Assembly (NCBI GenBank): GCA_965223845.1
Contig: CBDCXR010000004.1
Location: 544,001 to 608,000 of the forward strand
Reading direction: 5' to 3'
DNA: 64,000 nt
From: Planctomycetota bacterium
GTDB taxonomy: Bacteria; Planctomycetota; UBA8108; SXIK01
The notes beneath the pieces were generated by a model. It was not told where the DNA came from. It did no database searches and was given only the letters and a program-made list of their open reading frames with translations. The position numbers and the translations under genes were made by a program. Positions 29,674 through 36,045 of this stretch are shown here, in pieces. The number at the start of each line of letters is the position of its first letter. Positions within the stretch are counted from its first letter, which is position 1.

Positions 29674-31859
<2,186 letters not shown>

Positions 31860-31886
31860 TCGCCGCCGGGCCGGTGAGATCTCCGG

Positions 31887-31915
31887 GTGACTCCGCTCGG
31901 TGTGCACGGTAGAAT
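31887..31915 (+). promoter_or_regulatory. Candidate promoter for yajC-uORF-secDF
   Basis: GTGACT-17 bp-TAGAAT. Confidence 0.45.
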
Positions 31916-31981
31916 GCGCCGTTTCCGCTCGCGCGGCGCCGAGACGGAACCGAGGACGTCGAACTTTCAGGACTGAGATCG

Positions 31982-32392
31982 ATGCACCAGCTCATACCGG
32001 TTGTGATCGCCCAGGCGGAGGCCACGCCCCCGCCGCCGCCGGCGGACGGACAGGCGCCGGCCGCCGAGCCTCCGGGAGGGAGCTTTCTCATCCCGATGCT
32101 GATCGTGTTCTTCATCTTTTACTTCCTCATCATTCGTCCCAGCTCAAAGCAGCGAAAGCAGCGTGAAGCCGCGGTGCGGGGGGTGAAGAAGGGGGATGCA
32201 GTGGTAATGTCGGCTGGGATGAAGGGAATCGTCAAGAAGGTCGACGAACACGAAGTGACCGTGCAGATCGATCGAGACAAGGACATCCGAGTCCAGTTCC
32301 TAAAGGGAGCGATTCTCGAGGTCCTGCCGGATTCGACGGGTGAAGTGAGCGACGCGACGCAGCGAGAGCTCGCCGACCGCGCCTCGCGGTAG
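31982..32392 (+). CDS. yajC: Preprotein translocase subunit YajC
   Basis: IFYFLIIRP..KQRK, KKGD.V....G..G.V, located between tgt and secDF. Confidence 0.93.
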   Translation: MHQLIPVVIAQAEATPPPPPADGQAPAAEPPGGSFLIPMLIVFFIFYFLIIRPSSKQRKQREAAVRGVKKGDAVVMSAGMKGIVKKVDEHEVTVQIDRDKDIRVQFLKGAILEVLPDSTGEVSDATQRELADRASR

Positions 32393-32429
32393 GGAGACGA
32401 CTGGCGCAGCGAACGGAAGTGATCGGCTC

Positions 32430-32900
32430 GTGACGAAAACTCGACTTCGGTTATCGTCTCTGATCGTCTTCGTGCTCGCGGCGATGGCGCTGCGTTCGGG
32501 TGCCGATTGCCTCGGCGACCTCTTCGCACTTCCCGACGAGCGCGGAGCGCGAGCTGCGGAGAGCGATTCCGCGGAAGGATTCGTCCGGCCGTCGACGACC
32601 GACCGGCCGGCTGACCCGGCGGCCGAAACCGATGGGCCGCGAGACGAATCCGAGTCCGTCCCCGCGTCGTCGGGCGCCGGATCTTGCGCCGACGCCGGTA
32701 TCGTTGGCACGCCATCGAGCGGCCTCGTTCGCGTTCCGAGCTCCGCTCGAACCGCGACGCACGCCGTTGTTGCCACCGCCGCCGCGTCGCTGCCGATCAC
32801 GCGCGCGTGGCGCTGTGCCGGCCCGAGTCCTCTCTCGTCGCCGCTCGCGCTCGCTCGCGCGAGTGTCGCCGCGCCTCGCGCCCCGCCGTCCGAGACCTAG
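32430..32900 (+). CDS. Candidate RAPP-type translation arrest (secretion monitor) peptide upstream of secDF
   Basis: N-terminal basic + hydrophobic signal (MTKTRLRLSSLIVFVLAAMAL), disordered middle, C-terminal ...AAPRAPPSET*. RAPP codons at 32877-32888. Confidence 0.7.
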   Translation: MTKTRLRLSSLIVFVLAAMALRSGADCLGDLFALPDERGARAAESDSAEGFVRPSTTDRPADPAAETDGPRDESESVPASSGAGSCADAGIVGTPSSGLVRVPSSARTATHAVVATAAASLPITRAWRCAGPSPLSSPLALARASVAAPRAPPSET

Positions 32901-33078
32901 GGATTCGCTCCGACGCGCCGGCGACTAGTGCGGCCGTCGTCTTCTTCGCGTCGAGCGGGCGCAGAGCGCCCGGATCGACGTCCCGCTTCCGCTCCGCGGA
33001 TCCTGCGCAGCAGGCTCCGCGCCCTCGGTGCACCACTTCGCCGAGCTCCCTCAGAAAACACGGAACTTCGAGGCATCC

Positions 33079-36045
33079 ATGTACAAGAAAACCTTTTGGG
33101 GATTCACCGTCCTCGCCCTCGTGATCGCGTTCGCGATCTGGCTCCTCTACCAGGTGCCGATTCAGCTCGGAATCGACCTCCGCGGCGGCACGGAGCTCAC
33201 CTACCGTCTCGATCTCAGTCTGGTCGAGACGTCGCGCGCGGACGTCGGCGAGCAAGTGAAGAACATCATCAGCCGGCGTCTCAACGCGTACGGCCTGAAG
33301 GAGATCAACGTCTCCGTCCAGGGCGATGATCACCTCGTCGTCCAGCTTCCCGGCACGGATGCGCAATCCGTGAGCGACCTCAAGCGTCAAGTCGAGACCG
33401 CGGGTGAGCTCGAGTTTCGACTTGTCGCGTCCCCGAGTGAGGAGACTCAGGACAAACAAGCGCAGTATCAGCGACTCGAGCGCGAATACGACGAGAAGCT
33501 GCGGGTTTGGATCGCGAGCGACCGCTCGTCGCCGCGGCCGATTGCACCGGCCTACATCGTCCGGCCGGTCGTGGAGAAGGAGAACGCGAACGATCCGCGC
33601 AGCGACTTCAAGCCGACGGGGAGTAACCGCACGCTCGTCAACGACGAGGACAGCATCATCAGCGGGAAGTTCCTTTCGCGAGTCGGTCCGACGCGCGACC
33701 AGAGTCAGCGTCCCGCCGTTCACTTCGAGTTCTCGGGAAACGAGGCGCTCCGCTTCCACGAGCTCACGCGCAACAACATCGATCGCGGCCTCGCGATTCT
33801 GCTCGACGAGGACATTCTCCAGATCGCGAACATCGACGAGGCGATCCCCGGCTCCGGCCAGTTGAGCGGCGACTTCTCCGACCAGGACGTGCAGGGAATC
33901 GTGACGATCCTCCGCGGCGGAAGCATGCCGACGAAGCCGAGGCTGATCTCGGAGATGACCGTCGGCTCCGTGGTCGGACAGGATTCGATCCTCACGAGCC
34001 TCTACGCGGTCGTCTGCGGTCTGATGGCGGTGATGGCGGTGATGGCGGTCTATTACCTGTTCGCGGGCTGCGTGGCGAACTTCGCCGTCGCGCTGAACGT
34101 CCTCCTCATCCTCGCCTACATCGCGTGCTTCCGGCAGACGCTCACGCTCCCCGGAATCGCGGGGATCCTGCTCACGGTCGGTATGGCCGTCGACGCCAAC
34201 ATCCTGATCTTCGAGCGCGTGCGCGAGGAGAAGAAGAAGGGCAAGTCGCTCCTCCAGTCGCTCTCGACCGGCTATCAGCGCGCTTTCTGGGTCATCTTCG
34301 ATGCGAACTTAACGACGCTCATCACCGGATTCGTGCTCTTCAACTTCGGGACGGGGCCGGTGAAGGGCTTCGCGGTGACGCTCATCAGCGGAATCTTGAT
34401 CAGCTTCGTGACGGCGATCTTCGTGACTCGCCTCATCGTCAGCCTGTTCTACAACCTCGGCCTCGTGAAGAACCTGAAGATGTTCGAAGCGTTCGATACG
34501 CCGAAGATCGGGTTCGTCTCCGTGCAGCGTCGGTTCCTCATGCTCTCGGTCGTGGTGATCCTCATCACGTCGTGCCTCGTCCTCTTCCGCGGGAAGGCGA
34601 ACTACGGGATCGACTTCACCGGTGGCGCTCGAATCAACATGCAGCTCTCGCGGGCGGTGTCGATCTCGGAGATGAAGGAAAAGATCGACGCCCTCAAGGA
34701 GGCGAACCCCGACCTGTTTCTCGACTACGGCCTCCAGACCATCGGCGGCGACGGCGGTGAAGCTCGCGCATTCTCGCTCCGCACTCGCGTCAAGGAGGAG
34801 GGCGTTTCGATCGCCGACGCGCAGGAACCGGCGGCGGCACCGGAGGCGGAGACGCCCGAGACGACTCCACCTGCCGTCGCTCCGGCGACCGGAAACTCTG
34901 CGCCGGTCGCGCGCGACGCGGTGGAGGAGGTGAGTTCTGCGCCCGCGGCCGTCGAGGGGGACGCTCAAAAAGTCCGAGTGGTGCTCGAAGAAATGCTCCG
35001 GAGCGAGGGGCTTCTCCTCCCGCCTCTGTTCCCGGTATCGAACTGGTCCGCCGCGAGCGGAGTCGGGCAGGAGACCCAGGAGTTTCTCACGCTCGAGGTG
35101 AACTTCCTTTGGGTGAGTCCCGATCTCACCGAAGACTCGATCAAGGAGTCGATCCAGGCGGAGTTCTCGGCGCATCCGCTTCTCGGCGCGCCGACCGGTG
35201 CCGACGCGGCGAGCGGCTACTCGGGGATTCAGGTCGCGGAGGTGAAGCTCCTCGAAACTCCGCCTCCGGCGGAGGATGGGGTCTCCCGCTACCGCTTCGT
35301 CACCGCTCCGTACTCGCCGCCTCCTCCAGGCGCCGCGCGGTCGAACGTTCCTACCAAGGAGCAGGTGGTCGACGCCTTCCGAACGTACTTTCAAGACCAC
35401 GGTCCCGCGGCGACCGCCGCGGGGAATAAGCGCCACTTCGAGCTGTCGGAGCCGTTCTCCGAAGTCTCGACGGTCGGTCCGAGCGTCGCGACGAACCTCC
35501 AGCAGGACGCGATCATCGCGCTCTTCATTTCGATGCTCGGCATCATCTTCTACGTGTCGCTCCGGTTCGAGTTCATCTTCGGCCTCGCGGCGATCGTCGC
35601 GCTGATTCACGATATCGCGATCACGATCGGAGTCGTCGCCGTCGTCGACACGGTTTTCGGTGCGACGTTCCCCGTGAAGATCAACCTCGCCGAGCTGGCG
35701 GCTCTCCTCACGATCATCGGGTACTCGATCAACGATACGATCGTCGTGTTCGATCGAATCCGCGAGAACTTGCAGATCCACGCGAAGAAGCGGCTCTCGT
35801 TCAAGGAAATCGTCGATCTCAGCATCAATCAAACCCTCAGCCGAACGCTGTGGACGTCGGTGACGACGCTCATTGCGACATCGGTGCTGATCCTCTTCGC
35901 AACGGAGGCCGTGCGAGGATTCACGTTCATCTTCATGGTCGGAATCATCACCGGGACGTACTCCTCGGTGTTCGTCGCGAGTCCAGTGCTGATCTGGCTC
36001 CACGCGCGCGCCCAGCAGCGGCGGGAGGCGCTGGCGAACGCCTGA
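33079..36045 (+). CDS. secDF: Fused protein translocase subunit SecDF
   Basis: LGIDLRGG, TLTLPGIAGILLTVGMAVDANILIFER, GPVKGFA, YGIDFTGG, VGPSV, IGYSINDTIVVFDRIREN, QTLSRT. Confidence 0.96.
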   Translation: MYKKTFWGFTVLALVIAFAIWLLYQVPIQLGIDLRGGTELTYRLDLSLVETSRADVGEQVKNIISRRLNAYGLKEINVSVQGDDHLVVQLPGTDAQSVSDLKRQVETAGELEFRLVASPSEETQDKQAQYQRLEREYDEKLRVWIASDRSSPRPIAPAYIVRPVVEKENANDPRSDFKPTGSNRTLVNDEDSIISGKFLSRVGPTRDQSQRPAVHFEFSGNEALRFHELTRNNIDRGLAILLDEDILQIANIDEAIPGSGQLSGDFSDQDVQGIVTILRGGSMPTKPRLISEMTVGSVVGQDSILTSLYAVVCGLMAVMAVMAVYYLFAGCVANFAVALNVLLILAYIACFRQTLTLPGIAGILLTVGMAVDANILIFERVREEKKKGKSLLQSLSTGYQRAFWVIFDANLTTLITGFVLFNFGTGPVKGFAVTLISGILISFVTAIFVTRLIVSLFYNLGLVKNLKMFEAFDTPKIGFVSVQRRFLMLSVVVILITSCLVLFRGKANYGIDFTGGARINMQLSRAVSISEMKEKIDALKEANPDLFLDYGLQTIGGDGGEARAFSLRTRVKEEGVSIADAQEPAAAPEAETPETTPPAVAPATGNSAPVARDAVEEVSSAPAAVEGDAQKVRVVLEEMLRSEGLLLPPLFPVSNWSAASGVGQETQEFLTLEVNFLWVSPDLTEDSIKESIQAEFSAHPLLGAPTGADAASGYSGIQVAEVKLLETPPPAEDGVSRYRFVTAPYSPPPPGAARSNVPTKEQVVDAFRTYFQDHGPAATAAGNKRHFELSEPFSEVSTVGPSVATNLQQDAIIALFISMLGIIFYVSLRFEFIFGLAAIVALIHDIAITIGVVAVVDTVFGATFPVKINLAELAALLTIIGYSINDTIVVFDRIRENLQIHAKKRLSFKEIVDLSINQTLSRTLWTSVTTLIATSVLILFATEAVRGFTFIFMVGIITGTYSSVFVASPVLIWLHARAQQRREALANA

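Follow-up and report, generated by a model that had tools for sequence, protein, structure and literature searches.

Candidate RAPP-type leader peptides and the yajC-secDF locus

A small open reading frame (ORF) of 156 amino acids lies between yajC and secDF in a stretch of DNA from a Planctomycetota bacterium (assembly GCA_965223845.1, contig CBDCXR010000004.1). The whole stretch of 64,000 nucleotides (nt) that was analysed is called the window, and positions are given within it. The ORF combines a signal-like N-terminus with the residues R-A-P-P close to the stop codon, and it very probably represents the form taken in a new lineage by a known secretion-sensing switch, in which a leader peptide that stalls the ribosome controls a component of the Sec machinery.

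The closest described systems have been brought together by Fujiwara et al. 2024 (PMC10987492), who screened 30,175 genomes and described the RQH family of upstream ORFs (uORFs) of secA or secDF. In members of the RQH family a localisation signal is separated by more than 30 residues from a RAPP-like C-terminal motif, which is found in more than two species of an order, and there is no overall similarity between groups. Eleven groups belong to secDF, and leaders of the RAPP type are patchily spread in bacteria (PMC10987492). The planctomycete representative uDF_RQH_WSZJ01 (class MHYJ01), a secDF uORF with the motif R104APP, stalled the ribosomes of both E. coli and B. subtilis in PURE systems (fAP > 0.9; PMC10987492). 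RAPP stalls the ribosomes of these two species by blocking peptide-bond formation, and the mechanism worked out for ApdA and ApdP is expected by its authors to extend to most RAPP-like peptides (Morici et al. 2024, PMC10951233).

The ORF of the window agrees with this description. It is smaller than 300 amino acids, has no known function and lies on the same strand directly 5' of secDF, at a distance of 178 nt. The N-terminal signal or transmembrane segment is recognised by charge and hydropathy, where SignalP and DeepTMHMM were used in the paper, and within the order all 15 loci whose yajC-secDF gap is long have the RAPP-like C-terminal motif. The distance between the hydrophobic segment and the second proline of the motif is 132 residues in the window peptide and 90-132 in all 28 peptides examined, compared with the more than 30 asked for. 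The general layout of the secDF branch, that is, an unannotated small same-strand ORF with an N-terminal signal or transmembrane segment, a long and variable spacer and RAPP or RGPP near the stop, thus recurs in the window.

Within this branch uDF_RQH_WSZJ01 deserves particular mention, which comes from the same phylum, is likewise a small ORF 5' of secDF and has RAPP near its stop. As deduced from the construct names, its construct ends at residue 110, which leaves three residues after the two prolines, as in the window. The implied length of 110 residues differs from the 156 found here; the two peptides are set apart by this length, not by a comparison of their sequences. Since none of the 15 peptides of the window's group has 110 residues, the group probably belongs to another order. 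A planctomycete RAPP leader of secDF has in any case been published and tested, and the ORF is therefore not new in kind. An earlier note on this DNA, which had proposed a new secretion-monitoring arrest peptide, went too far in that one word (PMC10987492).

The same placement upstream of secDF, with a signal and RAPP near the C-terminus, is known from ApdA of the Actinomycetota and ApdP of the Alphaproteobacteria (PMC7897499, PMC10951233). For these, as for the window locus, no downstream hairpin that hides the Shine-Dalgarno (SD) sequence is predicted (PMC7897499). They belong to different phyla, and the window ORF falls outside both groups as delimited by Fujiwara et al. 2024, the separation being made on taxonomy and not on sequence. 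A further difference is that the window ORF sits between yajC and secDF. The uORF uDF_RQH_Enterobacterales, which belongs to secDF2 of Alteromonas naphthalenivorans, carries RGPP, and in the parts of PMC10987492 drawn on here uDF_RQH_Enterobacterales is the only family member for which it was shown that the stall induces the downstream gene. In that case the SD is partly masked by a stem-loop, which the stalled ribosome disrupts, whereas in the window the stall would lie about 190 nt from the SD and no masking is predicted.

The logic proposed for the window is also that of SecM-secA and VemP-secD2F2, in which an exported chain, a stall released by translocation and the control of a Sec component are combined (PMC7897499, PMC10951233). 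The distance from signal to arrest site is similar as well, with about 130 residues in the window and medians of 131.5 and 133 for the long forms of SecM and for VemP (PMC10987492). Both of these are gammaproteobacterial families that differ in their arrest sequences and in their downstream RNA switches.

The pipeline of Fujiwara et al. 2024 used annotated upstream genes only (PMC10987492). The window peptide has no match, itself included, among 5.8 billion predicted proteins, which bears out the expectation of the earlier note that such an ORF would usually be missed. Since it is uncalled in that collection, an annotation-based screen would skip it; those of its relatives that are annotated as hypothetical proteins could have been caught. 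The family's peptides were not found in the supplements of PMC10987492 and PMC12992588 that were searched; the secDF uORF table (MOESM6) and the figures lay outside this search, and the window's order may already be listed in that table. Short C-terminal strings that did match in these supplements belong, according to the passages shown, to unrelated peptides of other genomes and were set aside. More generally, gene finders can overlook genes of this kind in GC-rich genomes, in which case annotation-based screens may miss them too.

Features of the small ORF

The peptide and its presumed signals for translation and arrest are located as follows.

32415..32419, + strand: GGAAG, possible ribosome-binding site 10 nt 5' of the GTG start, inferred from the sequence
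32430..32900, + strand: small ORF of 156 amino acids with a GTG start, candidate RAPP-type arrest peptide
32451..32492, + strand: hydrophobic core LSSLIVFVLAAMAL, codons 8-21, preceded by K3, R5 and R7; mean Kyte-Doolittle hydropathy 2.61 over 14 residues
32877..32888, + strand: R150-A151-P152-P153 with the codons CGC GCC CCG CCG, where an arrested ribosome would be expected to hold Pro152 in its P site and Pro153 in its A site

The ORF, its signal-like start, R-A-P-P three codons before the stop and the 178 nt to the secDF ATG were found exactly where the earlier note had put them. Three Lys or Arg residues within positions 1-7 are followed by an uncharged segment of 14 residues (8-21) and then by R-S-G-A-D, a succession that is signal-like and has the layout of a Sec signal peptide. 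At the other end the peptide reads A-A-P-R150-A-P-P153-S-E-T before the TAG at 32898-32900; the motif codons occupy 32877-32879 (R150), 32880-32882 (A151), 32883-32885 (P152) and 32886-32888 (P153). The peptide has no Pfam family, and zero Pfam matches were obtained in the alternative frames or on the opposite strand of the ORF.

Conservation among relatives

The gap between yajC and secDF was taken from the secDF loci of 40 relatives, three loci without a yajC match being left out. Fourteen loci have a gap of 480-765 nt, and all of them belong to families f1 and f2 of the window's order; wherever the gap was measurable in family f3 or in the class's other families, it is 153 nt at most. In every one of the 14 long gaps there is an ORF of 136-212 amino acids on the same strand with an N-terminal hydrophobic segment, and each of these ORFs has PRAPP, PRGPP or [PV]RGPP 2-5 residues before its stop. 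The other reading frames of the gap are not kept open across the relatives.

When the order's 21 genomes were all searched with a profile of the peptides, 15 matches resulted, every one of them adjoining secDF. The search added the locus of genome G006, with which 15 of 15 long-gap loci have the ORF and R-[AG]-P-P. No match was obtained in the remaining six genomes, three of which are from family f3 (two with short gaps, one with a contig end). The other three have no assessable region 5' of secDF, with partial secDF matches in G002 and G014 and only a marginal one (E 7e-4) in G019, which is 62% complete. Among the 5.8 billion proteins the same profile found 27 protein clusters, none with a Pfam domain. 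One of these is labelled 'hypothetical protein [Planctomycetota bacterium]' by its source, and at least one comes from a Tara marine data set. The patchy map of RAPP-type secretion monitors thereby gains a well-supported lineage, documented by two families within a single Planctomycetota order and by 27 protein clusters; the picture of how RAPP peptides stall is unchanged by it.

The check that the earlier note had set beforehand was that an ORF with a signal peptide and a terminal RAPP or RGPP should be kept while the middle of the peptide diverges. This is what was observed, both in the 15 long-gap loci and in the 13 database relatives that were fetched, all of which end in R[AG]PP plus two residues. 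A hydrophobic N-terminal segment is present in 28 of 28 peptides. The invariant columns of the alignment are the start, one Arg before the hydrophobic segment and the R, P and P of the motif, and no others; within family f2 an N-terminal block R-L-S-x-x-F-P-L-L-L is kept in addition. When the window peptide was compared by hhalign with a profile of 17 others, the match was limited to the last eight residues. The two ends have thus been kept, and the middle has diverged so far as to be unrecognisable. It is of low complexity and cannot be aligned between genera.

Judged by dN/dS, which is 0.24-0.47 in all ten pairs from genus g5, the only group with close pairs, the frame of the ORF is under purifying selection in that genus. 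In the alignment of the nine g5 leaders (A2, columns 46-59) the codons for R-G-P-P-A are near-invariant also at synonymous sites (CGC GGY CCT CCC GC), despite a dS of 0.9-1.8 between the g5 subgroups. This synonymous constancy may reflect selection on RNA structure, on the choice of tRNA at the stall site or on likeness to an anti-SD sequence, three causes that look the same in these data. A separate observation concerns the member in G017 (L009:3517-4092, - strand), a peptide of 192 residues that has a long basic extension before the hydrophobic segment and a second, internal RGPP besides its C-terminal RAPP.

Chance occurrence and genome-wide avoidance of the motif

The earlier note had cautioned that RAPP is easily obtained by chance in GC-rich DNA. 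For the 18,154 six-frame ORFs of 100-250 amino acids in this genome (65% GC), R[AG]PP within the last 10 residues was counted in 31 (0.17%), and the combination with a hydrophobic N-terminal segment in just three, one of which is the small ORF itself, and chance is excluded for the combination of features seen here. Of the other two, one represents a second conserved family, a candidate leader of an extracytoplasmic function (ECF) sigma factor gene that is described below. The third (C4:6285929-6286348, minus strand) overlaps longer ORFs in other frames and was set aside as probably spurious.

The motif is, moreover, avoided in the proteins of this genome. The 3,845 likely genes, a set limited to those of at least 250 amino acids that show a coding GC pattern, contain 42 instances of RAPP, compared with 65-95 of each of its 11 other permutations, and 24 of RGPP, compared with 33-75; each is the rarest of its 12. 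Before A-P-P, Arg is found at 0.43, His at 0.14 and Gln at 0.65 of expectation, and His, Arg, Trp and Gln are depleted before both A-P-P and G-P-P. This depletion is an indirect sign, drawn from motif counts in one genome, that the motifs may impede translation in this organism. It agrees with what Fujiwara et al. 2025 (PMC12992588) report, a proteome-wide exclusion of RAPP- and RGPP-type motifs. In the same genome, a uORF combining a signal with a proline motif was seen neither ahead of the two secA genes nor ahead of yidC.

Proposed coupling of a stall to secDF expression

On the sequence evidence we consider it probable that the product of the small ORF is a nascent-chain sensor which is targeted to Sec and is of the RAPP-like ('RQH') kind. 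By analogy with ApdA and ApdP, ribosomes would stall at R150-A-P-P153, the P site being occupied by Pro152 and the A site by Pro153. Since about 130 residues separate the N-terminal signal from this site, the signal would then be outside the ribosome. The Sec machinery could engage it and pull on the chain, upon which the stall would be released and translation would end three codons later. At low export capacity the stall would persist and the expression of secDF downstream would be raised. For release by pulling and for the feedback on secDF, the models are SecM, VemP and the one tested secDF member of the family. The RNA elements that may take part in the last step are listed here.

32865..32925, + strand: predicted hairpin of 15 pairs (32865-32881 with 32907-32925) that encloses the RAPP codons and the stop; minimum-free-energy fold
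32901..33078, + strand: spacer of 178 nt between the small ORF and secDF, with C at 0.39 and G at 0.30
32948-32981, 32995-33021 and 33024-33045, + strand: three predicted local hairpins in the spacer
33069..33072, + strand: GAGG, the secDF SD sequence, 6 nt 5' of the ATG

Our best guess for this least certain step is that the stalled ribosome would melt the hairpin that encloses the arrest site and the stop. Such melting would alter the fate of the 178-nt leader, through its fold or its exposure to Rho, rather than open an SD hairpin.

Several results weigh against the sensor interpretation or against its coupling step. The window peptide has no close relative, and selection on the frame was measured in g5, to which the window does not contribute a pair. 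The signal peptide call for the small ORF is made on charge and hydropathy; in g5 the corresponding segment has 19 residues, is followed by acidic residues and resembles a membrane anchor more. The codon-position GC of the ORF is nearly flat (0.71/0.68/0.75, compared with 0.64/0.38/0.82 for secDF). As to the RNA, the pairing words pointed out in the earlier note do exist on the + strand (GCGCAG at 32959-64 with CTGCGC at 33003-08, and GGATC at 32972-76 with GATCC at 32999-33003), and the several hairpins predicted for region 32850-33100 include pairings of these words, but the region folds no more stably than shuffled sequence (z = -0.43, with 62 of 200 shuffles at least as stable). The hairpin around the arrest site has no covariation support. 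When the ribosome footprint on the RxPP codons was forced to be unpaired, the accessibility of the region from SD to AUG rose in none of the 15 loci and fell in two to three. The consensus fold of the nine g5 leaders is weak as well (-19.9 kcal/mol, with a covariation term of -2.25).

A switch like that of SecM, in which the footprint overlaps a helix that sequesters the SD, is accordingly not predicted by folding in any of the 15 loci. Constrained partition-function folding gives the secDF SD-to-AUG region of the window an unpaired probability of 0.61 with or without a stalled ribosome, and the SD is paired with the footprint region at a probability of 0.01; only in locus L003 is this value high (0.86). 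The suggestion of the earlier note that the coupling is not a simple SD hairpin is in line with these figures. Sakiyama 2021 (PMC7897499) likewise reports no SD-sequestering hairpin for ApcA, ApdA and ApdP and suggests a distinct regulatory mechanism.

Other candidate RNA elements were tried and rejected. GCCTCG at 32872-77 is a perfect complement of CGAGGC at 33068-73, which contains the secDF SD, but this long-range pairing was dropped at a predicted probability of 0.01. The arrest codons might act as an anti-SD (CCU-CCN giving CCUCC), and the first proline codon is indeed CCT in 10 of 14 loci, or 11 of 15 with G006; since SD pairing is predicted in L003 only, no general rule follows. An invariant hairpin of the g5 leaders, CGCGG/CCGCG around CCCUC, is formed by the R-G-P-P-A codons themselves and is therefore uninformative, being inseparable from the conservation of the protein. 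The six leaders from outside g5 (mean column identity 48%) are too divergent for a covariation analysis. Since spacers in the family range from 69 to 184 nt and no masking of the SD is predicted, these loci form a useful comparative set for how RAPP peptides of secDF pass on the stall.

The coupling step has no support from folding, and Rho antitermination and mRNA tethering are therefore kept as alternatives. Under the first, the stall is the same but is read out in transcription: a ribosome stalled by the stop codon would block Rho, and the polymerase would read into secDF; when there is no stall, Rho would terminate transcription within the 178-nt spacer. In the TnaC-tnaA system, a ribosome stalled at the leader stop codon keeps Rho from loading on the leader. 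The TnaC leader and that of the window would have in common a stall by the leader stop codon and a long spacer before the regulated gene. TnaC differs in responding to tryptophan, in lacking an export signal and in acting through Rho. The range of spacer lengths fits such a readout, the genome encodes Rho (PF07497, 113.7 bits), and no SD-masking structure is predicted, as is the case for ApdA, ApdP and ApcA (PMC7897499). The composition of the spacers gives a mixed answer, with C above G in the window and C-rich spacers also in L003 and L008, but with no excess of C over G in L002 or L004 and hardly any in most g5 loci. In addition, the window spacer is predicted to be highly structured by its three hairpins, which is unfavourable for Rho loading, and we regard a readout through Rho as unlikely.

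Under the second alternative the stall is no on/off switch at all, but parks the yajC-uORF-secDF mRNA at the translocon by way of the exposed signal, with the result that the next cistron, a membrane protein of 12 helices, is made where it inserts. The pausing of XBP1u in eukaryotes is an analogue of such tethering. An SD that is predicted to be mostly open whatever the state of the stall would suit this function, as would spacers whose sequence is unconserved outside one genus and peptides whose sole conserved features are those needed for targeting and pausing. Yet once the translocon pulls, the stall is expected to end fast, which would shorten any tethering, and the stall of uDF_RQH_Enterobacterales in Alteromonas induced the downstream gene via a stem-loop (PMC10987492); tethering as the main function seems to us decidedly improbable.

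Under a protein-level explanation the ORF would code for a small protein of an ordinary sort that is exported or anchored in the membrane, such as an accessory of SecDF-YajC, and R-x-P-P would be a binding or sorting motif without useful stalling. The dN/dS below 1 across the whole g5 peptide indicates that its sequence matters somewhat beyond the motif, and the conserved N-terminal block of family f2 points the same way. What is hard to reconcile with such a protein is a low-complexity middle that cannot be aligned between genera, together with a motif that is invariant only in R-x-P-P, always stands 2-5 residues from the stop and is otherwise avoided by the genome. Moreover, all tested RAPP and RGPP peptides of the same layout, as given in the parts of PMC10987492 drawn on here, stalled in at least one system, and we give this explanation very little credence. 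That the ORF is an untranslated open frame in GC-rich DNA, as its flat codon-position GC, its absence from predicted-protein collections and the overlapping ORFs of 100-200 amino acids in four other frames might suggest, can practically be dismissed in view of the frame, N-terminal segment and motif kept in 15 of 15 syntenic loci where other frames are not kept open, the g5 dN/dS values and the genome background of 3 in 18,154.

Gene order and operon setting

The neighbouring elements of the locus all lie on the same strand as the small ORF.

30729-31859, + strand: tgt
31887..31915, + strand: sigma-70-like promoter match GTGACT-17-TAGAAT, a consensus match only (1 found compared with 0.0 expected in shuffles)
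31982..32392, + strand: yajC, 136 amino acids (PF02699, E 3.2e-22)
33079..36045, + strand: fused secDF, 988 amino acids, with its ATG at 33079 (PF02355 and others)

The SecDF proteins of all relatives align from the Met at 33079, and the upstream GTG at 33028 is therefore not the start of secDF. The promoter match is situated just after tgt and about 65 nt 5' of yajC, and no terminator-like site was found on the + strand between yajC and secDF, which makes it plausible that yajC, the small ORF and secDF form a single operon. Zero Rfam matches were obtained across 31800-33300.

A second signal-plus-RAPP gene and the wider phylum

The second conserved family mentioned above is represented in the same genome by a gene for a peptide of 141 residues (G000:C4:4255853-4256278, + strand, equal to L047:1354-1779), located 3.7 Mb from the secDF leader. 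The peptide has a hydrophobic N-terminal segment, a middle rich in His and Cys with D-C-x-x-C, and the ending AAPRAPPA before the stop, of which AAPRAPP is common to it and the secDF leader. Its gene is separated by 80 nt from a downstream ECF sigma factor gene, behind which lie secretin and TadE/TadG-like genes. This layout recurs in four relatives, in which PR[AG]PP stands 1-6 residues from the stop. Two of them are from other families of the order (L052:1465-1920, + strand, and L053:1483-1917, - strand), and there the next gene was judged by eye to be ECF-sigma-like; the other two are metagenome proteins (P0029 and P0030). As a family, these peptides have 133-151 residues and [DE]CxxC, and their genes lie 59-80 nt 5' of the ECF sigma gene.

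Going by these features, the second peptide is likely to be a RAPP-type arrest leader for the sigma factor. For Streptomyces lividans and others, RAPP and RGPP arrest peptides have been reported ahead of ECF sigma genes, as have Cys/His-rich ones ahead of genes related to metals (PMC12992588). With a second conserved peptide gene of this kind, the signal-plus-RAPP module is used at least twice in the genome. A tentative extension, which we hold to be possible though doubtful, is that the module would be a reusable leader that works without an SD hairpin, for secDF as well as for the ECF sigma factor, neither of which has an obvious RNA switch, and that is read out, in a way new to Sec monitors, by blocking Rho or by mRNA tethering. 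If true, this would answer how peptides of the ApdA/ApdP type control secDF.

To place the locus in the phylum, a survey was made of the regions upstream of secDF in about 45 further Planctomycetota families, 60 regions in all, of which 53 gave a secDF match that could be used. It considered ORFs of 50 or more amino acids that end near secDF, the secDF starts being rough where SecDF has N-terminal insertions. Three candidate leaders came out, two LPPP ORFs in family f54 and one RAPP ORF in family f94, and nothing comparable was seen in the remaining usable loci; the trait of a RAPP leader for secDF is patchy in the Planctomycetota. One locus of family f75 (L060, reverse strand) encodes a SecDF with a long insertion after the first membrane helix. 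Because of this insertion, its apparent 1-kb gap between yajC and secDF is coding and not a leader, a caveat for screens that are based on gap length.

The two ORFs of f54 encode proteins with a signal peptide and end in LPPPHHRP (L073:904-1362, + strand, 152 amino acids) and in LPPPA (L080:347-748, - strand, 133 amino acids), each directly before the stop, and they lie about 90-130 nt 5' of secDF. The published LPPP group, uA_LPPP, is described upstream of secA, and an LPPP leader of secDF in f54 may be a further variant of it. In the f94 locus (L115:528-1232, + strand) the gap between yajC and secDF is about 980 nt. Its ORF, the start codon of which is uncertain, has an internal hydrophobic segment and the sequence HPSRAPP followed by 11 residues before the stop, and it may be another independent RAPP leader of secDF.

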